The notes below the pieces were generated by a model. That model did not search any database and was not told the origin of the DNA. It saw only the letters and a list, made by a program, of their open reading frames with translations. The translations under genes and the position numbers were made by a program. A stretch of DNA of 64,000 nt from Escherichia phage FL31: sequence record PP400782; one strand, written 5' to 3'. Shown here piece after piece: positions 22,541 through 36,047 of this stretch. Position 1 is the first letter of the stretch; each line of letters opens with the position of its first letter.

Positions 22541-22548
22541 TATAAATA
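22541..22548 (+). promoter_or_regulatory. late promoter TATAAATA for gene 34
   Basis: Exact TATAAATA 35 nt upstream of gene 34 ATG. Confidence 0.75.
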
Positions 22549-22582: not shown

Positions 22583-25500
22583 ATGGTTGACATCAAACGT
22601 AAGTTCAGGGCCGAAGATGGTCTTGACGCAGGCGGTGATAAGATAGTTAACGTTGCGCTTGCTGACCGCACAGTTGGCACCGATGGCGTGAACGTTGACT
22701 TTTTGGTGCAAGAAAACACCGTACAGAATTATGACGATACGCGCGCGTATACAAAAGATTTTATTGTTCTTTATGATAATCGTTTTTATCAAGCTTTAAG
22801 CGATATTCCAGCTCCGGCAGGCCCTTTCTCTTTGGGTAAATGGAAGGCAACTCGTACAGATGCAGATTGGATTACAGTTCAAGGCGGAGATTTCCAATTA
22901 TCAGTAGGTAACTCTATTGCGGTTGATACTTCAGCTGGCACTGATATTAATTTCACTTTGCCTCAAAATCCTTTAGATGGCGATACAGTTATTTTGTCTG
23001 ATATTGGCGGTAGAGTAGGCTATGTAAAAGTTCAAATTACTGCAGCGGCTCAAAGTATTGTAAACTTTAGAGGACAACAGGTTCGTTCAGTTTTAATGAC
23101 GCACCCAAAATCTAAAATGGTCTTCATTTTTAGCAACCGCCTATGGCAAATGTATATTTCTGATTATGAACGTAATGCAGTCACAGTAACTCCTGCTAAG
23201 CCGTATCAGGCGCAACCTAACGATTTTATCATTCGTCGTTTTACATCAGCCGCTCCTATTAATATTACATTGCCTCGCAATGCTAATAATGGCGATATTA
23301 TTAATTTAGTTGATTTAGACAAATTAAACCCGTTATATCACACAATTGTCAAAACTTACGATGATACAACTTCTATACGAGAAGCTGGTGTTCATGTAGC
23401 AGAAGGACGTAATACTGCGGAAGCGTTCTTTGTTTATGATTCTGCTAATAGCTTATGGCGTGTTTGGGAAGGTGACCAGAAATCTCGTTTACGTATAGTT
23501 CGTAATGATACTGATTTACGCCCTAATGAAGAAGTTCTTGTGTTTGGAACTAATAATGATACAATCTCGACGGTAAATCTTACTTTGCCTACAGATATTT
23601 TGTCTGGCGATACTGTTAAAATATCGTTGAATTATATGCGTAAAGGGCAAACTGTAAAAATTAAAGCTGCTGAAGGCGATACAATTGCTACCAGTATTTC
23701 TTTATTACAGTTCCCAAAACGTTCAGAGTATCCACCTGATGCACAATGGGTTTCTGTTAGTGAGCTGGAATTTAATGGCGATACTTCGTATGTACCTGTA
23801 CTTGAGTTAGCTTATATAGAAGATTATTCATCTGAAACAAAATATTGGGTAGTTCAACAAAACACTGTAACCGTCGAACGAGTCGATGCATCGAGCAATA
23901 CAACTCGAGCTCGTTTAGGTGTTATTGCTCTTGCTTCTCAAGAGCAAGCAAATGTTGATTTAGAAAATGCTCCTGGTAAAGAACTGGCTATTACTCCGGA
24001 AACATTAGCAAATCGTACAGCAACTGAAACTCGTCGTGGTATTGCTCGTATTGCAACAACTGCACAAGTTAACCAGAATACCGATTTTGCATTCCAGGAT
24101 GATTTGATTATTTCTCCTAAGAAATTGAACGAACGTACAGCAACTGAAACCCGTAGAGGTGTTGCTGAAGTTGCAACTCAGGCTGAAACTAATGCTGGCA
24201 CAGATGATACCACTATTATTACTCCTAAGAAATTGGATGCCCGTCAAGGTTCTGAAGTTTTATCCGGTATTGTAAAATACACATCTACGACTGGTACTAC
24301 AGCTGCTACTATTCGTGGTAATGCTGGGACTAACGTTTATAACAAATCCGTAGATAATTTAACTATTTCTCCAAAGGCTCTTGACCAGTATAAAGCTACC
24401 CCTACTCAACAGGGCTCAGTAATTCTTGCTATTGAAAGCGAAGTTATCGCTGGCGAATCACAAGCTGGTTGGGCTAATGCTGTAGTGACCCCTGAAACTC
24501 TGCATAAGAAAACTTCTACTGATGGACGTATTGGTTTAATTGAAATTGCTACGCAAGCAGAAACTAACACTGGAACTGATTATACTAGAGCAGTAACGCC
24601 TAAGACGTTAAATGATAGGAAAGCTACGGAAGGATTATCTGGTATAGCCGAAATTGCTACGCAAGTTGAATTTGATACTGGAACTGATGATACTCGTATC
24701 TCAACTCCACTGAAAATTAAAACTCATTTTGATTCTTCTGACCGTACCAGTGTTAATTCTGATTCCGGACTTATTGAAGAAGGAACCTTGTGGAACCATT
24801 ATACTCTTGATATTTCTAAAGCAAATGAAACACAACGTGGTACACTTCGTGTAGCGACCCAAGCTGAATCTAATGCAGGAACTTTAGATGACGTTCTTAT
24901 TACTCCTAAAAAGCTTTTAGGGACTAAGTCCACTGAAACATCTGAAGGTGTAATTAAGGTTGCTACTCAAGATGAAACTGTAACGGGAACTTCCACTAAT
25001 ACTGCTGTATCACCTAAGAATTTAAAATGGATTGTTCAATCAGAACCATCATGGACTGCTACTACAGCAATTCGTGGATTCGTTAAAACTTCGTCTGGTT
25101 CTATTACATTCGTTGGTAATGATACAGTTGGTTCAACACAACCTTTAGAATCATATGAAAAAAATAGCTATGCTATATCTCCATATGAATTAAACCGTGT
25201 ACTTGCTAACTATTTGCCATTAAAAGCAAAAGCAGCTGATAGTAATTTGTTAGATGGTCTAGATTCTCTTCAGTTCATCCGTAGAGACATCGACCAGACG
25301 GTTAATGGTTCTTTAAGTCTTACTAAACAGACCAACCTGAGTGCCCCTTTGGTATCTACAAGCACCGCTTCTTTTGGTTCCGAAGCATCTGTTACTCGTA
25401 GATTAACTCTTAATGACTCTAGCGGTTCCGAAATAGTTTTCACTAAAGGAACCCAATCTCTTAGTAATAAAGAGAATTTCGTTGTTAGAGTATGGGGTAA

Positions 25501-26416
25501 TAGCGCTACAGATGGTGCCCGCGATACAGTATTTGAAGCGGGTGACGAAACCGGATACCATTTCTATTCTCAGCGCGCTGCTGATAATAAAGTATCATTT
25601 AATATTAATGGAACACTTTATTCAACAGGTATTGTTTCTACAAATGGATTAAATGTTACAGGTGTTTCTACCTTTACCGGGTCTATTAGTGCTACAGGCG
25701 AAATTGTTTCTAGTTCTCCTATTGCATTCAGAGCTATTAACGGTAACTATGGTGTTATGCTTTATAACGCTGGTAACAGTTCTTATATTGCATTAACTAA
25801 CTCAGGTGACCAGACCGGGACGTTTAATAACTTACGCCCGATCACGATTAACAACGCCACAGGCTTAGTTCGTCTTGACAATGGTGTTCAAATCACAAGT
25901 GGTGCAACAATAACTACCGGCGGGTTAACTGTAAATAACAGAATTATTTCTAACGGCGTTAAAACTGCCACGGTTTATACCGATAAACCAACAGCTTCTA
26001 CTGTAGGTTTTTGGTCTATTGACATTAACGATTCTGCTGTATATAGCCAATTCCCTGGATACTGGACGCGTGATAACAAAGGTAACCGTGACCAAGAAAT
26101 TAAATATCCTGGTACTTTGACTCAATTCGGCAATAGCTTAGATTCGCTTTATCAGGATTGGATTTGTTATCCTACGGGTGCAAATGGTGGTAGTATTCGT
26201 TATACTCGTACCTGGCAGAAAAATAAAGATGCTTGGACTTCATTTGCAATGGTATTTGATAGTGGCAACCCACCTTCACCTAGCGATGTCGGTGCTATCC
26301 CATCTGATAATGCTGTTATTGGAAACCTTACTGTTCGAGACTTCTTACAATTAGGAAATGTGAGAATTGTTCCAGACCCGGTTAACAAAACAGTTAAATT
26401 TATATGGGTTGAATAA
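22583..26416 (+). CDS. 34: long tail fibre proximal subunit gp34
   Basis: 1277 aa; MVDIKRKFRAEDGLDAGGDKIVNVALADRTVGTDGVNVDFLVQENTVQ matches T4 gp34; TATAAATA late promoter 22541-22548. Confidence 0.95.
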   Translation: MVDIKRKFRAEDGLDAGGDKIVNVALADRTVGTDGVNVDFLVQENTVQNYDDTRAYTKDFIVLYDNRFYQALSDIPAPAGPFSLGKWKATRTDADWITVQGGDFQLSVGNSIAVDTSAGTDINFTLPQNPLDGDTVILSDIGGRVGYVKVQITAAAQSIVNFRGQQVRSVLMTHPKSKMVFIFSNRLWQMYISDYERNAVTVTPAKPYQAQPNDFIIRRFTSAAPINITLPRNANNGDIINLVDLDKLNPLYHTIVKTYDDTTSIREAGVHVAEGRNTAEAFFVYDSANSLWRVWEGDQKSRLRIVRNDTDLRPNEEVLVFGTNNDTISTVNLTLPTDILSGDTVKISLNYMRKGQTVKIKAAEGDTIATSISLLQFPKRSEYPPDAQWVSVSELEFNGDTSYVPVLELAYIEDYSSETKYWVVQQNTVTVERVDASSNTTRARLGVIALASQEQANVDLENAPGKELAITPETLANRTATETRRGIARIATTAQVNQNTDFAFQDDLIISPKKLNERTATETRRGVAEVATQAETNAGTDDTTIITPKKLDARQGSEVLSGIVKYTSTTGTTAATIRGNAGTNVYNKSVDNLTISPKALDQYKATPTQQGSVILAIESEVIAGESQAGWANAVVTPETLHKKTSTDGRIGLIEIATQAETNTGTDYTRAVTPKTLNDRKATEGLSGIAEIATQVEFDTGTDDTRISTPLKIKTHFDSSDRTSVNSDSGLIEEGTLWNHYTLDISKANETQRGTLRVATQAESNAGTLDDVLITPKKLLGTKSTETSEGVIKVATQDETVTGTSTNTAVSPKNLKWIVQSEPSWTATTAIRGFVKTSSGSITFVGNDTVGSTQPLESYEKNSYAISPYELNRVLANYLPLKAKAADSNLLDGLDSLQFIRRDIDQTVNGSLSLTKQTNLSAPLVSTSTASFGSEASVTRRLTLNDSSGSEIVFTKGTQSLSNKENFVVRVWGNSATDGARDTVFEAGDETGYHFYSQRAADNKVSFNINGTLYSTGIVSTNGLNVTGVSTFTGSISATGEIVSSSPIAFRAINGNYGVMLYNAGNSSYIALTNSGDQTGTFNNLRPITINNATGLVRLDNGVQITSGATITTGGLTVNNRIISNGVKTATVYTDKPTASTVGFWSIDINDSAVYSQFPGYWTRDNKGNRDQEIKYPGTLTQFGNSLDSLYQDWICYPTGANGGSIRYTRTWQKNKDAWTSFAMVFDSGNPPSPSDVGAIPSDNAVIGNLTVRDFLQLGNVRIVPDPVNKTVKFIWVE
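23990..25030 (+). repeat. internal tandem repeats in gp34 coding sequence (about 8 copies of a roughly 36-45 aa fibre repeat)
   Basis: Reiterated TATETRRGxAxxATxAExNxGTDxTxxxTPKKL units in the translation. Confidence 0.6.
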
Positions 26417-26424
26417 GAGGTTAT

Positions 26425-27549
26425 ATGGAAAAATTTATGGCAAGGTTTGGACATGGATACGTCCAAACGCCGTTTTTATCGGAAAGCAATTCAGTTAGAT
26501 TTAAGCTAAGTATAGCGGGTTCATGCCCGCTTTCAACAACTAATCCGTATATTTTGTTCCAAAACGAGCCTTTAGGGTTGCAGTCTTTTGGTATTGGACT
26601 AAATGTTAGGGTGATAAATCCTGAAAATGGAACTATAGTTGATAGTAAATTATACAATTTTGCGCCTACAAATAATGCAACTTCGGCAGCGTTTATTTCG
26701 TTTGTTAATACATACGCGGATAATTTCATTTTCGCATTTATTTCTAATAACAAATTTAATTTGCCACCAGAAATAATTGAATGGTTTAAAGCTGCTGGGA
26801 GTTCAGTTATACCGTCAATTGAAGTTGCTAGTCTTGTTGATATTTCATATTCAGCGTTTTATGTTTCAGGTAAAAATACTATTGCATTAGAACACATAAA
26901 ATACAGTAATAAGAAAACAATTTCTGATTACGCAACTCCATTAGATATTGTATATGACTCTATTGCTGATATAGGTGCTACCGGCTATCCTAGACGCACA
27001 TATGAAGCTCTAGAAACGTTTTTATCTCCTGTTGGAGGAACTAACAATGAAATAAAAAGGATGCCTACATCATCCCTTGTTACTCCTATCGCAAACTATG
27101 GATTAAAGCCTACAGATTTTCTTTATTTGAAATTTCAATTAATGGCTGATGAAGAATTATTAGAGGAAGGAACCACAAGACTTTCAATTCGTTTCTTTAA
27201 GTCTCCATCTAGCTCTCCTATATCATCTAAAGATATAAACTTTGATGGAACTGCTGGTGAATGGAAGTTATACGAAGAATATGTTGAAATACCAGCCGAA
27301 GCTGATGGCTTTACGGTATATTGTTACCGTACGGCCCCAGTCGGTCAAGGTGGACTAAGAAATGTTATTTTCACTGAAGTATCATGTAACGGAAGTATAG
27401 CAAAACCTGCCGAGTTTGGTATAAACGGTATTCGTGTTAATTACATTGATGAATCATTAACCGGTAATGATATAATGGACTTGCCTACTCAGTTATCTAA
27501 CGACACAGGTAAGGTATTTGGGCAGGAATTTAAAGAGTACACAGAATAA
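26425..27549 (+). CDS. 35: long tail fibre hinge protein gp35
   Basis: 374 aa; MEKFMARFGHGYVQTPFLSESNSVRFKLSIAGSCPLST matches T4 gp35; SD AAGAGG. Confidence 0.88.
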   Translation: MEKFMARFGHGYVQTPFLSESNSVRFKLSIAGSCPLSTTNPYILFQNEPLGLQSFGIGLNVRVINPENGTIVDSKLYNFAPTNNATSAAFISFVNTYADNFIFAFISNNKFNLPPEIIEWFKAAGSSVIPSIEVASLVDISYSAFYVSGKNTIALEHIKYSNKKTISDYATPLDIVYDSIADIGATGYPRRTYEALETFLSPVGGTNNEIKRMPTSSLVTPIANYGLKPTDFLYLKFQLMADEELLEEGTTRLSIRFFKSPSSSPISSKDINFDGTAGEWKLYEEYVEIPAEADGFTVYCYRTAPVGQGGLRNVIFTEVSCNGSIAKPAEFGINGIRVNYIDESLTGNDIMDLPTQLSNDTGKVFGQEFKEYTE

Positions 27550-27550
27550 A

Positions 27551-27566
27551 GGAGACTTCGGTCTCC
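27551..27566 (+). terminator. intrinsic terminator after gene 35
   Basis: GGAGAC-UUCG-GUCUCC followed by UUUU. Confidence 0.65.
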
Positions 27567-27574
27567 TTTTCGCG

Positions 27575-27582
27575 TATAAATA
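27575..27582 (+). promoter_or_regulatory. late promoter TATAAATA for gene 36
   Basis: Exact TATAAATA between terminator hairpin and gene 36 SD. Confidence 0.7.
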
Positions 27583-27608
27583 CTTTAATATTAATAAGGA
27601 GACACGAA

Positions 27609-28265
27609 ATGGCCGATTTAAAAGCCGGAAGTACAGTTGGTGGTTCCGTCATATGGCATCAAGGCAATTTTCCTTTAATGCCAGCTGGCGATGACATCCT
27701 ATATAAAACATTTAAATTATACACCGAATATAACAAGCCAAAAGCGGCTGATAACGATTTCGTATCTAAAGCAAATGGTGGGACATATCTCAAAAAGGTA
27801 ATCTTTAACGAAGGTGTTGCAGTCAAAACAGCAGATGACCAAACGAATGGCATTTTTTCTGGCGGTGGTGACGCCGCGACATTCGACCAAACAAACATGG
27901 ATATTGTTTCGTGGTATGGTATTGGGTTTAAATCATCTCAAGGTACAGGTGAAAGAACTGTTGTAATTGATACTCGCACCGGTAATATAAGTTCTAAAGG
28001 CGTTATTGAAGCATCTCAATTCAGAGCCACAACGTTAGCACCTTTAAATAATTACGACCTTACTCGCAAAGATTATGTTGATAGTCAAATAAATACAGTT
28101 AATGCTAATGCAAACAGTCGTGTACTCCGTTCAGGAGATACGATGACCGGCGCGCTAACCGCCCCAAACTTTTTCTCACAGAATCCTGCATCTCAACCCT
28201 CGCATGTTCCACGATTTGACCAAATTGTTATTAAGGATTCTGTTCAAGATTTCGGCTATTATTAA
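27609..28265 (+). CDS. 36: long tail fibre distal connector gp36
   Basis: 218 aa; position and size as T4 gp36; late promoter TATAAATA 27575-27582 and SD AAGGAG. Confidence 0.85.
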   Translation: MADLKAGSTVGGSVIWHQGNFPLMPAGDDILYKTFKLYTEYNKPKAADNDFVSKANGGTYLKKVIFNEGVAVKTADDQTNGIFSGGGDAATFDQTNMDIVSWYGIGFKSSQGTGERTVVIDTRTGNISSKGVIEASQFRATTLAPLNNYDLTRKDYVDSQINTVNANANSRVLRSGDTMTGALTAPNFFSQNPASQPSHVPRFDQIVIKDSVQDFGYY

Positions 28266-28273
28266 GAGGACTT

Positions 28274-31200
28274 ATGGCTACTTTAAAACAAATACAATTT
28301 AAAAGAAGCAAAACTGCAGGAGCACGTCCTGCCGCTTCAGTATTAGCCGAAGGTGAATTGGCTATAAACTTAAAAGACCGTGTACTTTTTACTAAAGATG
28401 ACCAAGGAAATATTATTGATCTGGGTTTTGCTAAAGGTGGTAGTATTGACGGGAATGTTATTCATACTGGCAATTATAACCAAACTGGCGATTATACTTT
28501 AAATGGCACCTTCACTCAGACAGGTAATTTTAATTTAACCGGTATTGCTCGAGTAACTCGTGATATTATTGCCGCTGGGCAGATTATGACTGAAGGCGGA
28601 GAACTTATTACAAAAAGTTCAGGTACAGCGCATGTTCGTTTTCATGATTCAGCTAATCGTGAACGTGGAATCATTTATGCCCCGGCTAATGATGGATTAA
28701 CTACGCAAGTAGTTAATATCCGCGTTCAAGACTACGCCGCCGGTGATGAAAGCACCTATGCATTTTCAGGCAGTGGCCTATTTACTTCACCTGAAGTATC
28801 AGCATGGAAATCTATGTCAACTCCTCAGATTTTGACAAATAGAGTTATTACTAATAATAAATCTACGAGCGATTATGATATTTATTCTATGGCAGACAAC
28901 GTTCCATTGTCTGAAAGCACTACTGCTATTAATCATCTCCGTGTTATGCGCAATGCTGTAGACGCTGGTGTATTCCATGAAGTTAAAGATAATGATGGAA
29001 TAACTTGGTATACCGGAGATGGCTTAGACACTTATCTTTGGTCGTTTACCTGGTCCGGCGGATTGAAAGCAGGCCATTCTATTTCTGTTGGTACTCCTGG
29101 TGGCAATAAAGGATACTCTGAATTAGGGACTGCTTCAATTTCTCTTGGCGATAATGATACCGGGCTAAAATGGCATCAGGATGGATATTATTTCAGCGTC
29201 AATAATGGAACGAAAACATTTTTATTTAGCCCTAGCGAAACAACTAGCCTAAGAAAATTTGTAGCTGGATATTCTACTAATGGAACAGATTTAACTACTC
29301 CTCCGACTGAAAACTATGCATTAGCCACTGTTGTTACTTACCATGATAATAACGCGTATGGTGACGGTCAAACTCTTTTAGGTTATTATCAGGGCGGTAA
29401 TTATCACCACTATTTCCGCGGTAAGGGTACTACAAACATTAATACTCATGGCGGTTTGTTAGTTACTCCTGGTAATATTGACGTTATTGGTGGTTCTGTT
29501 AATATCGATGGTAGAAATAATTCTTCTACACTGATGTTTAGAGGTAACACAACTGGTGCTAGTTCAGTTGATAATATGACAATTTCTGTATGGGGTAATA
29601 CGTTTACTAATCCTAGTGTAGGTAATCGTAAAAACGTTATGGAAATTTCTGACGCAACTAGTTGGATGAGCTATATTCAAAGACTTACTACTGGTGAAGT
29701 AGAAATGAACGTCAATGGTTCATTTGAATCATCTGGTGTTACTGCTGGAAATAGAGGAGTTCACACAACAGGCGAAATTTCATCCGGAGCAGTGAATGCG
29801 CTTCGCATTTGGAATGCAGATTATGGAGCTATTTTTAGACGTTCAGAAGGCAGTCTTCATATTATTCCAACTGCTTATGGTGAAGGTAAACATGGTGATA
29901 TCGGTCCACTTCGCCCGTTTAGTATGGCTTTAGATACCGGTAAAGTTACTATTCCAGATTTACAATCAAGTTACAATACGTTTGCTGCTAACGGTTATAT
30001 TAAATTTGTTGGTCATGGAGCGGGTGCCGGCGGTTATGACATTCAATATGCTCAAGCGGCCCCTATTTTCCAGGAAATTGATGATGATGCTATAAGCAAA
30101 TATTATCCTATTGTTAAACAGAAGTTTTTAAACGGCAAAGCTGTTTGGTCTTTAGGTACTGAAATTAATTCGGGTACATTCGTTATTCATCATCTGAAAG
30201 AAGATGGTTCACAAGGCCATACGTCTCGTTTTAATCAGGACGGTACTGTTAACTTCCCGGGTAACGTTCAAGTTGGTGGTGGCAGAGCTATTATTGCTGA
30301 AAATGGTAACATTTTCTCTGATATCTGGGAAACATTTACTTCAGCTGGAGACACTACAAATATTCGTGATGCGATAGCTACTCGTGTTTCTAAAGAAGGT
30401 GACACGATGACTGGTAAATTGACTTTATCTGCTGGAAATGATGCCCTTGTTTTAACTGCAGGCGTGGGTGCTTCATCGCACATCCGTAGCGATGTAGGTG
30501 GTACAGGTAACTGGTATATAGGCAAAGGCGGCGGCGATAATGGTCTAGGTTTTTACAGTTACATTACACAAGGCGGTGTATACATAACAAATAATGGCGA
30601 AATATCGCTTTCTCCTCAAGGTCAAGGAACATTTAATTTTAATAGAGACCGCCTTCATATAAACGGTACACAATGGGTTGCGCATAAATCTGGCGCCTGG
30701 GGTGACCAATGGGGTTTAGAAGCTCCTATATTTGTAGATTTTGGATCCGTCAGCAATGACTGCTATTATCCTATTATTAAAGGAAAATCTGGTATTACTA
30801 ACGAAGGATATTTTTCCGGCGTAGATTTTGGTATGCGACGCATTACTAATACCTGGGCGCAAGGTATTATTCGTGTAGGTAACCAGGAAAATGGCCATGA
30901 CCCACAGGCTGTCTATGAATTCAATCATAACGGCACTTTTTATTCTCCTAACATGGTTCAAACCGGCGCAAAACTATCAGCTGGTGGTGGTGACCCGGTA
31001 TGGACTGGACCGTGTCTTGTTATTGGTGATAATGACACTGGGTTAGTTCATGGCGGTGACGGCCGAATCAATATGGTTGCCAATGGTATACATATTGCAA
31101 ACTGGGGAGCAGGCTATCAATCTCATCCTGGGCTTTGGGATTCAACCGGTGCTTTTTGGACAGAAGTTGGAAGAGCTATCGTTTCTCATGGGCATCTCGT

Positions 31201-31585
31201 TCAGGCAAATGATAGTTATTCAACGTTTGTCCGTGATGTTTATGTCCGTTCTGATATTCGTGTTAAAAAAGACCTTGTTAAATTTGAAAATGCTTCTGAG
31301 AAGCTTTCTAAAATTAACGGTTACACTTATATGCAGAAGCGAGGCCTAGATGAAGAAGGTAATCAGAAATGGGAACCTAACGCCGGTTTGATAGCTCAAG
31401 AAGTTCAAGCTATTTTGCCTGAATTAGTTGAAGGTGACCCTGATGGCGAAGCTTTACTTCGTTTGAACTATAACGGTGTAATTGGTTTAAATACAGCTGC
31501 AATCAATGAGCATACTGCAGAAATTGCGGAACTTAAATCAGAAATTGAAGAACTTAAAGCATTAGTTAAATCATTGTTAAAATAA
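28274..31585 (+). CDS. 37: long tail fibre distal subunit gp37 with C-terminal intramolecular chaperone domain
   Basis: 1103 aa; N-terminus [52 protein letters not shown] matches T4 gp37. Confidence 0.92.
31250..31585 (+). other. gp37 C-terminal intramolecular chaperone / autoproteolytic (peptidase S74-like) domain
   Basis: SDIRVKKDL...[13 protein letters not shown]...[15 protein letters not shown]...[26 protein letters not shown] resembles endosialidase and T5 pb1 C-terminal chaperone domains. Confidence 0.6.
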
Positions 31586-31590
31586 TAAGA

Positions 31591-31604
31591 GGGGCTTCGG
31601 CCCC
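31591..31604 (+). terminator. GC-rich UUCG hairpin between genes 37 and 38 (attenuator or RNA-stability element)
   Basis: GGGGC-UUCG-GCCCC; no strong U tract, overlaps SD region of gene 38. Confidence 0.4.
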
Positions 31605-31616
31605 TTGGAGGTTTAT

Positions 31617-32390
31617 ATGGCAGTAACAGGACCATGGGTAGGATCGTCTGCAGTAGTTAATACAGGACAAAATTGGATGGGTGGCGCGGCCCAACGATTA
31701 AGAATGGGCATTCCGTTTTGGATGAGTAATATGATAGGTCGATCTGTTGAAATAATTCACACGCTTGGAGCAGACCATAACTTCAATGGCCAATGGTTCC
31801 GAGATAGATGTTTTGAGGCAGGTAGTGCACCTATAGTGTTTAATATCACTGGAGATTTAGTATCATATTCTAAAGATGTTCCTTTATTCTTCATGTACGG
31901 AGATACACCAAATGAATATGTTACTTTGAATATTCATGGTGGAGTTCATATGTGGGGACGAGGTGGTAACGGTACTGTAAACGGAAACCCAGGTACAAAT
32001 GGCGGCGATGTAATCCAAAATGATATCGGCGGAAGACTTCGTATTTGGAACTATGGCGTTATTGCATCAGGCGGCGGTGGTGGTGGTGCAGTGTCATTAC
32101 AGAATAGCTGGGCGCCAAATGCTACAGCAGGTGGCGGTGGTGGTAGACCATTTGGCCTCGGCGGCGGTGGCGTTAATTGGCCGGGTGGTAATGCTAGTTA
32201 TGACGCCCCGGGCGGTGCCGGTTACACTTCCCAATTCGGCGGAGGCAATGGTGGTGATGCTGGAGGTCGGGGCGGAGATGGATGGGGTAATCACTTATCT
32301 AGATCTGGCGGTGGTGCTCCTGGCAGAGCAGTATTCGGAAGTTCACCGTCATGGGGTGCTACAGGCACAATCTACGGCTCCTGGATTTAA
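31617..32390 (+). CDS. 38: receptor-recognising adhesin gp38 (T2/T6 type)
   Basis: Start at ATG 31617 preceded by GGAGG (ORF track used upstream TTG); [36 protein letters not shown] plus Gly-rich blocks match T2-type gp38. Confidence 0.8.
31950..32345 (+). repeat. glycine-rich motifs (GGY codon runs) alternating with variable segments in gp38
   Basis: [49 protein letters not shown] in translation; ggcggtggtggt runs in DNA. Confidence 0.7.
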
Positions 32391-32408
32391 ACGATAATAC
32401 CTCTCAAT

Positions 32409-32416
32409 TATAAATA
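32409..32416 (+). promoter_or_regulatory. late promoter TATAAATA for holin t
   Basis: Exact TATAAATA 20 nt upstream of t ATG. Confidence 0.7.
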
Positions 32417-32435
32417 TTGATAAATGGGAGGTAAT

Positions 32436-33095
32436 ATGGCAGCACCAAAAGTATCATTTTCGCCTAGTGATATTTTATTTGGGTTGCTAGACCGCATTTT
32501 CAAAGATAACGCCTCTGGAAATATTCTTATTTCCAGAGTTGCTGTTGTAGTTCTTTTGTTCCTAATGGCACTAATATGGTACAAAGGGAATATTTTTATG
32601 GATTATTACGTGAGGTCGAAATATGATACTTACACAGAAGTAATTCAAAAAGAAAGAAATACACGATTTGAATCTGCGGCTTTAGAACAACTACAAATAG
32701 TCCACGTCACATCAAGGGCGGATTTTAGTTCGGTGTATTCTTTCAGACCTAAAAATCTAAATTATTTCGTCGACCTTATTGCGTATGAAGGTAAGTTACC
32801 TAGCACAGTAACTGAAAAATCTATGGGAGGATTTCCTGTCGATAAAACGACAGCAGAATATTCGGTCCATTTAAGTGGACTTCACTTTACTTCTAAAACA
32901 GATTTTGCTTTCTTACCTACCAAATCAAAAACTCCGGAACTGGCATATATGTATAGTTGTCCTTACTTCAATTTGGATAACATATATGCTGGAACTGTTT
33001 CTATGTATTGGTATAAGGGGTCAGATGTGTTAAATGAAGAACGCTTGGCCGCAATATGCAACCAAGCTGCAAGGATATTAGGGCGGGCTAAATAA
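32436..33095 (+). CDS. t: holin / lysis inhibition sensor T
   Basis: MAAPKVSFSPSDILFGLLDRIFKDNASG...RVAVVVLLFLMALIWY...CNQAARILGRAK matches T4 holin; SD GGGAGG; late promoter 32409-32416. Confidence 0.95.
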   Translation: MAAPKVSFSPSDILFGLLDRIFKDNASGNILISRVAVVVLLFLMALIWYKGNIFMDYYVRSKYDTYTEVIQKERNTRFESAALEQLQIVHVTSRADFSSVYSFRPKNLNYFVDLIAYEGKLPSTVTEKSMGGFPVDKTTAEYSVHLSGLHFTSKTDFAFLPTKSKTPELAYMYSCPYFNLDNIYAGTVSMYWYKGSDVLNEERLAAICNQAARILGRAK

Positions 33096-33368
33096 TTAGT
33101 TGTTAGAATACATCGTCAAATGGCGATAAATATTTTCAAAACCTTCATTGAATTCACTAATCAGTGTTTTCTTTTCTTCGGCAGTTAAATTTGTAATTAG
33201 TTTTCTGAACGAATTCTGATTTAGCTGCCGACCATCTTTTTTAATTCCAATCTCATTCAAGAATCCGATGAAATTTGCTCGGTCTTCAACAATATCTTCC
33301 CTCGAGAATTTAATCAAAATAGAAGCAACCGTAATAATTTCACGTACAATTTCAATATCTTTATTCAT
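33096..33368 (-). CDS. asiA: anti-sigma70 protein AsiA
   Basis: 90 aa; MNKDIEIVREIITVASILIKFSREDIVEDRANFIGFLNEIGIK matches T4 AsiA. Confidence 0.92.
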   Translation of the reverse strand: MNKDIEIVREIITVASILIKFSREDIVEDRANFIGFLNEIGIKKDGRQLNQNSFRKLITNLTAEEKKTLISEFNEGFENIYRHLTMYSNN

Positions 33369-33414
33369 AACGTTTTATTCATTCCATTTGGTTGATATGA
33401 GTATAGTACCATTA

Positions 33415-33576
33415 TCAGTGTTGATTGTAAACAGCTTTTTCTACACTTTTAACGTAATCAGTGTAGTCTTCCTGTTCATACGAGTGTAAGGCCAAGAACG
33501 TGGCTAATAGTTCATTATAGACTAAAGCCTCACGCTCACGTTCTGCCTCTACTACGTTCTGAAGATTATGGCTCAT
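33415..33576 (-). CDS. hypothetical small protein (53 aa)
   Basis: ORF track, start moved to internal ATG to avoid overlap. Confidence 0.35.
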   Translation of the reverse strand: MSHNLQNVVEAEREREALVYNELLATFLALHSYEQEDYTDYVKSVEKAVYNQH

Positions 33577-33577
33577 A

Positions 33578-33865
33578 TCATTCCTTATAACTATCAATGT
33601 AGTCCTGTATGTCAAAGAATGACATTTCATATTCTAGGACATTAAGAGCCCGTTCTTCAGTATAGTCAGAACCAAATACGATAGTGATTTCACCAGGCTT
33701 CATATGATTGAAATCGACACTAAAAGGAATACGAGAACATACTTCGTCTGCCATATCTGCAACAACACTACGATATACTTCTCGGTTAACCTGATAAAGC
33801 TCTGCAAGTTCTTCGCAACGAATAACAAGTTCAGTGGCAGGATTTTCTTTTATTTTAGTAAGCAT
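33578..33865 (-). CDS. acidic small protein (95 aa), possible Arn-like anti-restriction protein
   Basis: About 20 acidic versus 9 basic residues; T4 arn (92 aa) lies in this interval; no sequence-level confirmation. Confidence 0.45.
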   Translation of the reverse strand: MLTKIKENPATELVIRCEELAELYQVNREVYRSVVADMADEVCSRIPFSVDFNHMKPGEITIVFGSDYTEERALNVLEYEMSFFDIQDYIDSYKE

Positions 33866-33939
33866 AGTCTTTACCCTTATGTTTTTGTTTACGTTTAGAT
33901 TGAAGTTCTGATTTCTTCTTGTCCTTATGGACAGAAGCC

Positions 33940-34167
33940 TTATTGAAATCGTGTTTTGCTACAAGATTGTTCATAATGATTTATAACCTCATTTAAACAT
34001 TTATCGGTAAAAGAAAACTTTTTAGCCACAGAACATTCGATGATGTGTTCTTTCAAATCTTTAGAGTCAGTATAACCCATCTCAGTAATAAAGTGGCGAA
34101 TTAAAGCTTTATTCTTATCATTAACAGAATTAAAATAATCTGCTTTAGAATCAATTATTCTCATCAT
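33940..34167 (-). CDS. hypothetical protein (75 aa)
   Basis: ORF track. Confidence 0.45.
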   Translation of the reverse strand: MMRIIDSKADYFNSVNDKNKALIRHFITEMGYTDSKDLKEHIIECSVAKKFSFTDKCLNEVINHYEQSCSKTRFQ

Positions 34168-34432
34168 CTAATTTCCTTAATTGATATTGCAACGAGCTAA
34201 TAATTTCTTCGTTCATTTTAATATACATGTCGCGCAAGAAAGGTTTTAACCCATCACGAATAATTGCCAACGTATCACCTTTACATAAATTAACCAAATA
34301 AGGATGATCTAAAGCATCCCAACCCGGCTGATTAGCATACATACCATAGTTTTCTTCCATCATATGATTAAGACGTTTGATATCTTGGATACGTGATTCA
34401 ATAGCATCTTTCTGGAGTTGTTTAATATTCAT
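34151..34432 (-). CDS. hypothetical protein (93 aa)
   Basis: ORF track. Confidence 0.45.
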   Translation of the reverse strand: MNIKQLQKDAIESRIQDIKRLNHMMEENYGMYANQPGWDALDHPYLVNLCKGDTLAIIRDGLKPFLRDMYIKMNEEIISSLQYQLRKLDDENN

Positions 34433-34893
34433 TAATAAAGGTCCTCTGAATAAAGTTCTTTCTCACTTCCACCACGTTCAATATGTACCTGTCCAGCATA
34501 CGTTGCAATAATCATTGCTTCTTCACGAGTCCAGTAATTAGAGTATTGGTCGATAAAGCCTTGGTCATCGCCACAAACTTGTTGCGAGACTAATTGAGGA
34601 CCAACTATATCAAGTACTTCAGCCATATCTTTAGAGTAATGACGAACTCCAGGAATAACCAGAGTTCCACCGCTCTTCAATTTAAACCTATTAGCTGCAC
34701 ATACTATAACACGTTGAACTTTTTGGTCATTATTCCAATAGCACGTTTGCCAACAGATTTCAGGAACTTCATTCATTATATCATCAGCAGAATAATTATA
34801 ACCGTAGGACTGGAATTTTTCTGCTAGACTTTCAGGAGTCTCACGAGACAAGGCCAAATCTAATAGCTCTAAACGTTCTTTAAATGATTTCAT
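34432..34893 (-). CDS. hypothetical protein (153 aa)
   Basis: ORF track; conserved-looking blocks [34 protein letters not shown]; function unknown. Confidence 0.5.
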
Positions 34894-35219
34894 TTAAACC
34901 ATTCCTTAATACGTTGCCAAATAGATTTTTGTGCTTGTTTATTTACACCAATCGAACGAATAACCGGTTGTGACTGCTGGTATTCTTTGTAATCTTCTTT
35001 ATAGATTTCGTAAGGTGCATCAACAAATGAACTGATCGCTGCCATGTAGTTTTTACGAAGGCCAAATGGCGCGTCATTATTTTCACGAATAACCGTATAT
35101 TGGCCTGCTTTAATCTTTACAATTGTCCCTAAATAAGCCCCGTGGTACCAAATATCCCATCCTTCCTGAGTAGGTTCTGCACATTTACGAAGTTCGTTAA
35201 TAATATTCAGCTTATTCAT
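34890..35219 (-). CDS. hypothetical protein (109 aa)
   Basis: ORF track; 4-nt overlap with upstream gene. Confidence 0.5.
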
Positions 35220-35229
35220 TATGTATTCC

Positions 35230-35862
35230 TCACAGTACGTTAGTTACAAGGGTAATGATTTCTTTGGACACATTAGGGAAGTCAATGTAAGTATATTTAC
35301 CACCGATCTTAATCTTAACATCATTTTCAAGAGAAGTAAACAGCTTTGATTCAGTTTCTGACATGTTGTATGCAAAGATTCTAAGAGCGCCATCTCGACG
35401 AATTTCGATCTGACGAATACCTAGAACTCGTTTTGCAAATCGAACTTCCAAGTTACTACGGTTTTCACCAATTTCCTTAACTTCAACTTTATCTTTAATA
35501 TTTTCAAAAACAAAGTTTGCTAGTTCATGCATTTCAGGAGTAACTCCACGTGCTTTTCTAGTGTTACGTTTCTGAAGAAGTTCTGGAGCATTTTCTTGAG
35601 CAAATAGGTCTGCAGCTTTTTGGATAATATTCATTGCTTCGCCTGTTGCTACAAGTCCATCACCAGATTTTTCGACTAAACCTTTCTTAATCAATACACC
35701 AATGTTAGAGTTAACAACCGATGCATTGTATTCTGCTTCCAGAGCTTCACGGACATTGGCAGCAGTGGTGAAGTTGTTCTTAATGATATAAACCATTATT
35801 GCAGCAGTTTTTTCATTCAGAACGTTTTCAGAAGCTTTGATGATGTAAGTAACTTTAGACAT
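35230..35862 (-). CDS. motA: middle-transcription activator MotA
   Basis: 210 aa; MSKVTYIIKASENVLNEKTAAIMVYIIKNNFTTAANVRE...NSNIGVLIKKGLVEKSGDGL matches T4 MotA. Confidence 0.88.
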   Translation of the reverse strand: MSKVTYIIKASENVLNEKTAAIMVYIIKNNFTTAANVREALEAEYNASVVNSNIGVLIKKGLVEKSGDGLVATGEAMNIIQKAADLFAQENAPELLQKRNTRKARGVTPEMHELANFVFENIKDKVEVKEIGENRSNLEVRFAKRVLGIRQIEIRRDGALRIFAYNMSETESKLFTSLENDVKIKIGGKYTYIDFPNVSKEIITLVTNVL

Positions 35863-35892
35863 TTTATTTCTCCAATTTGGTTGTTTTGTTTT

Positions 35893-35930
35893 GATAGGTC
35901 TATAATATCATGTTTGAAGCACATGTAAAC
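35893..35930 (-). promoter_or_regulatory. early-type promoter (GTTTAC ... TATTAT) upstream of motA
   Basis: Minus-strand read; directly downstream of gene 52 terminator. Confidence 0.5.
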
Positions 35931-35955
35931 TGTTTTGTGAGAAAAATGCACAAAA

Positions 35956-35971
35956 GGGAGCCGAAGCTCCC
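35956..35971 (-). terminator. intrinsic terminator after gene 52
   Basis: GGGAGC-UUCG-GCUCCC then UUUUGUG. Confidence 0.6.
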
Positions 35972-36047
35972 TAATCATGTTTGTCCAACCAATACAGCCA
36001 AATCACTAGTGCAGCTATTGCACCGAGAAATCCTAAGGCTAGGGCAC

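Follow-up and report, generated by a model that had tools for sequence, protein, structure and literature searches.

How does a T-even phage build the receptor-binding end of its long tail fibre, and how does it change that end, when gp37 does not finish as it does in T4? The question is raised by Escherichia phage FL31 (record PP400782), of which we analysed a stretch of 64,000 nucleotides (nt), here called the window. Between 28274 and 32390 the window carries genes 37 and 38, which encode the distal long-tail-fibre subunit gp37 and its partner gp38. Very probably this region is the distal, host-range-determining part of the long-tail-fibre operon in a T-even phage related to RB69 (Mosigvirus). 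Genes 36, 37 and 38 would be transcribed late, and formation of the gp37 trimer would be nucleated by an intramolecular chaperone (IMC) of 111 amino acids (aa) at the C-terminus. In the folded trimer a Ser993/Lys998 dyad would cut the R992-S993 bond, and the departure of the 12-kDa chaperone would uncover a flat tip made by three DVYVR strands. A single gp38 monomer would dock on this tip through W7, W20 and W35 of its N-terminal helical domain, its glycine (Gly) motifs would form a polyglycine-II sandwich, and its variable loops would face the outer-membrane receptor, most likely the porin OmpF, with lipopolysaccharide (LPS) or other factors contributing. Host range would then evolve by swaps of DNA segments, mainly in a mid-segment of gene 38 and less often at Gly-codon runs. 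Our basis for this proposal is formed by domain identities, conservation of the dyad, the fold, the mosaic structure of the locus, a linkage pattern between gp37 and gp38, and the identity of both proteins to those deposited for FL31.

The chaperone domain at the end of gp37

The first-pass annotation of this DNA had proposed that gp37, unlike that of T4, ends in a segment of about 110 residues resembling IMC or peptidase S74 domains, beginning with SDIRVKKD at 31250. Both points hold. The segment comprises the last 111 residues of gp37, the position expected of an IMC in a fibre or spike protein, and its first codon is that of Ser993. Over aa 993-1052 the segment hits the Pfam family Peptidase_S74 (PF13884, "chaperone of endosialidase") at E 1.1e-12, scoring 48.4 bits where 22 is the cut-off; positions 1-57 of the 58 in the profile are aligned, position 1 falling on Ser993. 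S74 is also the last gp37 domain in T2 (from S1243, E 3.3e-15), T6, S16 and fPS-2, in each case from profile position 1 and with Ser at that position, whereas in the Pfam scan T4 gp37 ends in Collar and Phage_fiber repeats without an S74 domain. Moreover, tip and IMC together (aa 914-1103) match the crystallised S16 gp37 construct 6F45_A (phmmer, E 2.5e-43).

Further information was obtained from an AlphaFold model of aa 983-1103 (18 homologues, pLDDT 89.9), in which a beta-rich core is followed by a 37-residue C-terminal helix. By analogy with solved IMC structures, this helix is predicted to be the trimerising coiled coil. In a fold comparison the model matched only four solved IMC/ICA domains, those of endoNF (K1F endosialidase, 3GW6), the T5 fibre (pb1, 4UW8), the GA-1 neck appendage (3GUD) and MyRF (7DC3), all of family PF13884/MEROPS S74, with which the FL31 IMC shares only 14-28% sequence identity. 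The counterpart of SDIRVK in the crystallised MyRF ICA construct is, by alignment, ADLRAK. A comparison with endosialidase and T5 pb1, including their Ser/Lys dyad, had been suggested at first pass. At the level of fold it succeeded, and S993 and K998 are present, but at the level of sequence it did not: phmmer with the IMC alone against PDB sequences returned S16 gp37, MyRF and the tail fibre 8JOV only and reached neither endoNF nor T5, so the fold comparison was needed to reach them. In FL31 the released surface would dock a separate adhesin instead of forming the receptor-binding tip itself. Profile and model together place the end of gp37 in the S74/IMC family of self-cleaving chaperones.

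By analogy with its homologues, we strongly infer that gp37 cleaves itself between R992 and S993 (...FVRDVYVR^SDIRVKKD), which would give products of 106.2 kDa (aa 1-992) and 12.3 kDa. S16 gp37, once trimerised, cuts off its IMC (given as the last 113 residues) at DLNVS^SDRRIKK, and the gp38 docking surface is thereby exposed (PMC7917993); this autocleavage and the gp37-gp38 structure 6F45 were described by Dunne et al. 2018. A cleavage site DVYIR^SDGRLKI has been predicted for the fPS phages (PMC7917993), and processing of T2 gp37 was published in 1986. It is from the resemblance of DVYVR^SDIRVKK to the S16 and fPS sites, together with cleavage in homologues, that we expect cleavage here. The 3:1 stoichiometry and the docking geometry in our proposal would likewise follow the homologues.

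Alternatively, the S74-like domain could stay uncleaved as a structural cap, with gp38 binding elsewhere or only transiently. Cleavage in FL31 is indeed deduced from homologues, and the database relatives P0020-P0023 lack the Ser-bearing segment, though they look like fragments or chimeras. We nevertheless consider a retained cap very improbable. The dyad motif SDx[RK]xK (S993/K998) is kept in 23 of the 23 loci compared, despite IMC subtypes that are mutually only 30-60% identical, which is expected only if these residues are used. IMC homologues that retain the segment with the Lys position keep the motif too. In S16, gp38 docks on the very surface that cleavage exposes (PMC7917993, PMC6851490), and gp37 of both T2 and T6 has been reported to be proteolytically cleaved. 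Autocleavage thus stays our preferred reading for the gp37 C-terminus.

A further relative (L012:692-1169, from IMGVR_UViG_2974741249_000001, 155,101 bp) has its gp37 C-terminus split across two frames inside the IMC, owing either to a frameshift in sequencing or to disruption of the gene; the predicted nucleophile Ser is present in this copy as well. A word-indexed protein search with a 121-aa IMC query returned only 24 proteins of 83-210 aa, which all look like fragments or incomplete gene calls, and is therefore uninformative on how widespread the IMC domain is. Further upstream, the gp34 domain for C-terminal trimerisation, Gp34_trimer (PF21446), is matched inside gp37, at aa 450-550 (about nt 29621-29923); at E 2e-12 this region also hits 4UXE and 5NXF, two solved structures of gp34. 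In T2, T6, fPS-2 and, weakly, T4, gp37 contains this domain as well.

The gp38 adhesin and its receptor

The gene after gp37 had been read as that of a T2-type gp38 adhesin. This stands as far as architecture is concerned: the protein matches Gp38_N (PF21721, E 1.8e-21, profile 1-40 of 40) and GP38 (PF05268, E 1.5e-83, profile 1-218 of 218). It is homologous to the receptor-binding domain of PP01 gp38 (PDB 9V85, E 4.8e-75; PMC12892980) and to S16 gp38 (6F45_D, E 2.8e-50), and an exact look-up returns XAO15625.1, "adhesin protein", at 100% identity. These matches identify gp38 as a T2/S16-type adhesin of the GP38 family. The label needs refining as to subtype: the closest relatives in structure and compatibility are S16, PP01 and RB69, not T2 itself.

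The three tryptophans of the attachment domain (W7, W20 and W35) correspond to W7, W20 and W36 in S16, where they plug gp38 into the gp37 trimer, as seen in the S16 tip structure (PMC6851490). The mid-segment that follows is 84-100% identical in amino acids among coliphage relatives and 41-42% identical to T2 and S16. Glycine makes up 65 of the 257 residues of gp38 (25%) and 53 of the 152 of the specificity domain (35%). As the first-pass annotation had it, Gly-rich motifs alternate with variable segments: in alignment with S16, PP01, T2 and T6 the motifs match column by column, while the segments between them differ, the specificity domain being 53% identical to those of T2 and T6. From 9V85 and 6F45, the Gly motifs would adopt a polyglycine-II sandwich. 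Location in the virion as a monomeric fibre-tip adhesin that sets receptor specificity has been shown for S16, PP01 and T2-type phages (PMC6851490, PMC12892980).

Could gp38 be merely an assembly chaperone, as it is in T4? Legacy labels say so: the records of RB69 (AY303349), ECP52, JS10 and UPEC01 call their T2-type gp38 adhesin a "distal long tail fiber assembly catalyst", the role that gp38 has in T4. We find this extremely unlikely for FL31. T4 gp38, an unrelated 183-aa chaperone, has no Pfam match at all, whereas FL31 gp38 matches GP38 at E 1e-83 and is homologous to two crystallised adhesins (9V85, 6F45_D). The RB69 record's own note names the gp38 of the T2 subfamily as the adhesin, and FL31 gp38 is annotated (XAO15625.1) and studied (PMC12032242) as one. 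T4 and FL31 share gene order and the N-terminal and shaft domains of gp37, including the Gp34_trimer-like domain, but T4 gp37 binds the receptor itself.

As regards the receptor, our proposal rests on published experiments with FL31, RB69 and fPS-2. The specificity domain (aa 106-257) is 99% identical to those of RB69, fPS-2 and EC128, 56% to PP01, 53% to T2 and T6 and 47% to S16; against the Tsx-, OmpC-, T2- and WFK-type sequences compared, identity is 46-61%. It is one residue off RB69 and none off fPS-2, apart from one ambiguous X in the fPS-2 record. FL31 gp38 accordingly clusters with the OmpF-type subgroup (RB69, RB51, fPS-2, FL33 and FL34), and the adhesins of RB69, RB51, RB68 and fPS-2 are of the OmpF type like its own. 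The attachment side of fPS-2, a Yersinia phage, is different: it has a T6-like "GVPGW" attachment domain and a T6-like gp37 tip and IMC (31% IMC identity). RB69 differs from FL31 in the gp37 shaft (46-67% nt identity over about 30400-30700).

Lutz et al. 2025 (PMC12032242), who place FL31 in Mosigvirus, recognised its Gp38 as an adhesin of the S16 type and assayed it on receptor mutants. Deletion of ompF or of tolC reduced its efficiency of plating by one log only, below the authors' 3-log threshold. The primary receptor could thus be other than OmpF, or a redundant pair could be needed, and RB69 and RB51 have been reported to need FhuA and a complete LPS core besides OmpF (PMC3157838). We hold this to be unlikely. 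The adhesins of RB69 and fPS-2, which share 99% of the specificity domain with FL31, are OmpF-dependent by independent genetics (PMC3157838, PMC7917993), the fPS-2 receptor being OmpF plus LPS (PMC7917993), and gp38 phylogeny predicts the receptor well (PMC12032242). OmpF is most likely the FL31 receptor and the best supported by these comparisons, with real residual uncertainty. Since an adhesin nearly identical to strictly OmpF-dependent ones goes with a loss of one log on the ompF mutant, it is tempting to imagine a second, redundant receptor-binding activity in the module, for instance in the distal gp37 shaft related to that of phage G2133 or in a contact of gp38 with TolC or LPS. We regard this idea as improbable, slightly more so than a primary receptor other than OmpF; if it were true, the gp38 specificity domain would not suffice to predict host range.

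Pairing and exchange of segments

In a sliding nt comparison of the tail-fibre locus against seven relatives, FL31 turned out to be a mosaic. Gene 36 (100% nt identity) and gp37 up to 28557 are identical to Mosigvirus WFK. The shaft block that follows has 18 mismatches in 2429 nt to Tequatrovirus vB_EcoM_G2133 (99.3% identity) and includes one identical run of 1071 nt, but genes 36 and t on either side reach no more than about 56-83% identity with G2133. This contrast between shaft and flanks points to a very recent intergeneric exchange of tail-fibre DNA. The stretch 31055-31338 matches PTE-Eco05, the IMC is conserved in all phages of the FL31 subtype, and the gp38 specificity domain and gene t are RB69-like.

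Across the 23 loci, the type of gp37 tip and IMC and the type of gp38 N-terminus are completely linked. In the first type, DVYVR^SDIRVKKD with an IMC of 111 aa (in S16, DLNVS^SDRRIKKD and 112 aa) goes with gp38 MAVxGPW; FL31 is of this type, and so is the frameshifted copy mentioned above. In the second, DVYIR^SD[GSC]RLKIN with an IMC of 113-117 aa (in T2, SDIRLKSN and 99 aa) goes with MAVVGVPGW, and in the third DVYIR^SDIRCKSE with an IMC of 105-106 aa goes with MAVVGIPGW. Such pairing fits the finding that PP01 gp38 does not work on T2 gp37 until its 113 N-terminal residues have been exchanged (PMC12892980). The OmpF-type specificity domain, by contrast, is found with each of the three attachment types. 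From these sequences, the FL31 module is of the S16/PP01/RB69 compatibility subtype and not of T2's own, and gp37 tip, IMC and gp38 N-terminus appear to move together as a co-adapted unit, the specificity domain being exchanged independently of it.

S16 (6F45) has the same beta-helical gp37 tip, a C-terminal IMC that is autocleaved, the same three-Trp "GPW" attachment domain and the same gp38 architecture of beta-helix and polyglycine-II sandwich. It differs in sequence (56% identity in the IMC, 47% in the specificity domain), in the residue before the scissile bond (Ser in S16, Arg in FL31), in the length of gp37 (749 aa against 1103 aa, the FL31 shaft being longer) and in its receptor, Salmonella OmpC. 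T2, too, has an S74 IMC at the end of gp37, followed by a gene for a GP38-family adhesin, but its IMC of 99 aa is only 32% identical, its gp38 is 45% identical in the N-domain and 53% in the C-domain, and it has the "GVPGW" attachment type; T2 gp37 rejects gp38 of the PP01 type, which is the attachment type of FL31.

The linkage pattern bears on where DNA is exchanged, and so does the observation that nt matches to G2133, PP01 and WFK break off in the gp38 mid-segment (31884-31930). For both reasons the nearly invariant mid-segment is taken as the main crossover zone, with the Gly runs recombining too but less often. The first-pass annotation had named runs of GGY (GGT/GGC) codons at 32080-32300 as likely recombination hotspots for switches of receptor specificity. 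This interval is dense in glycine, as claimed (29 of 74 codons, 25 of these 29 being GGT or GGC), but the runs extend over 31938-32315, and the longest begins at 32070. G+C reaches 0.48-0.51 over the Gly array; the remaining intervals of the profile across 24000-36000 give 0.31-0.44. GGY accounts for 77% of Gly codons in gp38, 77% in gp37 and 81% in gp36, which rules out a codon choice special to gene 38: glycine density, not codon bias, sets gp38 apart. Tandem Repeats Finder detected zero tandem repeats in FL31 gene 38, which does contain short interspersed direct repeats between Gly runs, spaced 60 and 30 nt.

The Gly-codon runs may reflect nothing but the need for polyglycine II, with recombination there incidental, no commoner than in other conserved sequence, and the decisive exchanges in the conserved flanks of the specificity domain. 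The obvious shuffling is indeed of N-terminal type against whole specificity domain, with the break in the mid-segment; the runs are short (12-18 nt of near-identity), and GGY usage is the same as in gp37. We take this to be a real possibility, though somewhat doubtful, because several exchanges fall within the array. In FL31 itself, the mismatch patterns to RB69 and EC128 place an ancestry switch inside the motif GGDAGGRGG (32252-32273). There are zero mismatches to RB69 over 32253-32533 and only five through the end of gene t, and 12 synonymous differences to EC128 (L004) begin at the switch and lie at 32273-32378, within the last 120 nt of gene 38. Over the same interval the FL31 and EC128 proteins are identical, so that the synonymous block fits a different ancestry under strong purifying selection. 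Types of hypervariable segment (HVS) are also mixed among relatives: G2133 combines T6-like HVS1, HVS3 and HVS4 with a different HVS2, and L016 and WFK differ at the C-terminal end. In published crosses, exchanges lie in or near the conserved motifs (Tetart 1996 and 1998, as cited in PMC3157838).

A T6-like gp38 among the IMG/VR loci (L023:1662-1778, IMGVR_UViG_2974787500_000001) carries a perfect 51-bp tandem duplication of 2.3 copies (100% match). It spans a Gly motif and HVS2 and is bounded by Gly runs, reading GGGGG-YYSPFSQMRLTF-GGGGG-YYSPFSQMRLTF-GGGGG. Here unequal exchange or slippage between Gly-codon runs has left a direct trace, and it too speaks against their recombination being incidental. 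The main exchange lies in the mid-segment, but the Gly runs recombine as well, with one inferred junction in FL31 and this duplication as examples. IMG/VR supplied only 13 related loci, too small a number for statistical mapping of breakpoints, and the comparison of 23 loci illustrates a "hotspot" without quantifying it.

Some points weigh against our proposal as a whole. Cleavage and the location of gp38 in the virion are carried over from S16, with 56% IMC identity, and T2, with 32%. The AlphaFold model of the IMC is a monomer, whereas catalysis would depend on the trimer. The Gly-run junction in FL31 is defined by a handful of informative sites. Finally, the dependence of FL31 on OmpF is weak, and OmpF may not be its only or main receptor.

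The operon and the use of the module

The module closes a canonical T-even long-tail-fibre operon on the + strand, at 22.5-33.1 kb of the window (Table 1). Many RB69-like Mosigvirus phages share 96-97% nt identity with the flanks of the window, and the order 36-37-38-t is common to FL31, RB69, T2, T6, S16, PP01 and fPS-2.

Table 1. Features of the FL31 long-tail-fibre operon (positions in the window)
Feature	Positions	Strand	Basis or remark
T4-type late-promoter motif TATAAATA	22541-22548	+	just upstream of gene 34
gp34	22583-26416	+	
gp35	26425-27549	+	
T4-type late-promoter motif TATAAATA	27575-27582	+	upstream of gene 36; position as in T4 and fPS-2
gp36, long-tail-fibre distal hinge connector, 218 aa	27609-28265	+	Pfam Phage_T4_gp36, E 1.3e-29
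gp37 precursor, distal long-tail-fibre subunit, 1103 aa, 118.5 kDa	28274-31585	+	open reading frame, Pfam, phmmer
gp37 shaft block	28713-31141	+	99.3% to Tequatrovirus vB_EcoM_G2133
gp37 distal tip, aa 914-992, last strand DVYVR	31013-31249	+	homologous to S16 gp37 beta-helical tip, the gp38 docking site
IMC/Peptidase S74 domain, aa 993-1103, 111 aa, 12.3 kDa	31250-31582	+	
Ser993 codon TCT, predicted nucleophile, N-terminus of released fragment	31250-31252	+	profile position 1
Lys998 codon, predicted general base, Ser+5	31265-31267	+	SDx[RK]xK motif
IMC long C-terminal alpha-helix, aa 1066-1102	31469-31579	+	DSSP on AlphaFold model residues 84-120 (model begins at aa 983)
Intergenic hairpin AGGGGC-UUCG-GCCCCU, C(UUCG)G tetraloop	31590-31605	+	directly 3' of double stop TAATAA
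Shine-Dalgarno GGAGG for gp38	31607-31611	+	5 nt 5' of ATG
gp38 adhesin, 257 aa, 26.1 kDa	31617-32390	+	Pfam Gp38_N and GP38
gp38 N-terminal attachment domain, aa 1-47, MAVxGPW type	31617-31757	+	Trp7, Trp20, Trp35
gp38 mid-segment, aa 48-105, nearly invariant	31758-31931	+	
gp38 specificity domain, aa 106-257	31932-32387	+	99% aa identity to RB69, fPS-2, EC128
Gly-rich motif array alternating with variable segments	31938-32315	+	
Gly-codon runs	31938, 31962, 32001, 32028, 32070-32087, 32130-32144, 32160-32171, 32184, 32211, 32238-32255, 32262-32276, 32307-32315	+	
Inferred ancestry switch inside GGDAGGRGG motif	32252-32273	+	mismatch pattern against RB69 and EC128
T4-type late-promoter motif TATAAATA	32409-32416	+	upstream of holin t, at the module's downstream end
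Holin gene t	32424-33095	+	Pfam Phage_holin_T, E 6e-89

The start of gp38 is most likely the ATG at 31617 and not the mechanical TTG at 31605, since GGAGG lies upstream of the former, Gp38_N begins at that Met, and the annotations of RB69, S16, G2133 and FL31 agree. The late-promoter motif before gene 36 is likely the start of the 36-37-38 transcript. Across the whole window the count of TATAAATA shows no excess over chance, so what carries meaning is their placement just before genes 34, 36 and t, where such motifs also stand in T4.

A second G+C-rich hairpin with a C(UUCG)G tetraloop, AAAGGAGAC-UUCG-GUCUCCUUU, lies in the gap after gene 35 (27548-27569, + strand). Records of relatives label both hairpins as putative terminators, those of G2133 and WFK in the case of the element after gene 37. 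We disfavour this role, as the z-score of the latter against shuffles is only -2.0 and the + strand has no U-tract after it; none follows the hairpin at 27548-27569 either. Both are probably elements that stabilise or process RNA, not terminators.

Outside the module, gp35 aa 58-131 match the Pfam family ILEI (interleukin-like epithelial-mesenchymal transition inducer, FAM3 fold) with E 6.6e-7 (30.2 bits against a gathering score of 27). Downstream of t lies a minus-strand block of early genes (33096-35862), in which AsiA (33096-33368, 90 aa) and MotA (35230-35862, 210 aa) were assigned by position and annotated relatives.

All of this has been published already: the architecture, the chaperone that cleaves itself, the polyglycine adhesin and its shuffling by recombination. 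The gaps are only annotational. An exact-sequence look-up gives FL31 gp37 as XAO15624.1 (100% identity over full length), deposited as "hypothetical protein", and the G2133 and WFK proteins bear the same label; the gp38 of several relatives is called an "assembly catalyst". The passages on FL31 in PMC12032242 do not mention the IMC domain of its gp37.

In summary, the practical value of our results lies in annotation and engineering. As tip, IMC and gp38 N-terminus would behave as one unit while the specificity domain is free, host-range swaps should be made downstream of gp38 residue ~105, so that the new adhesin stays compatible with the resident fibre.

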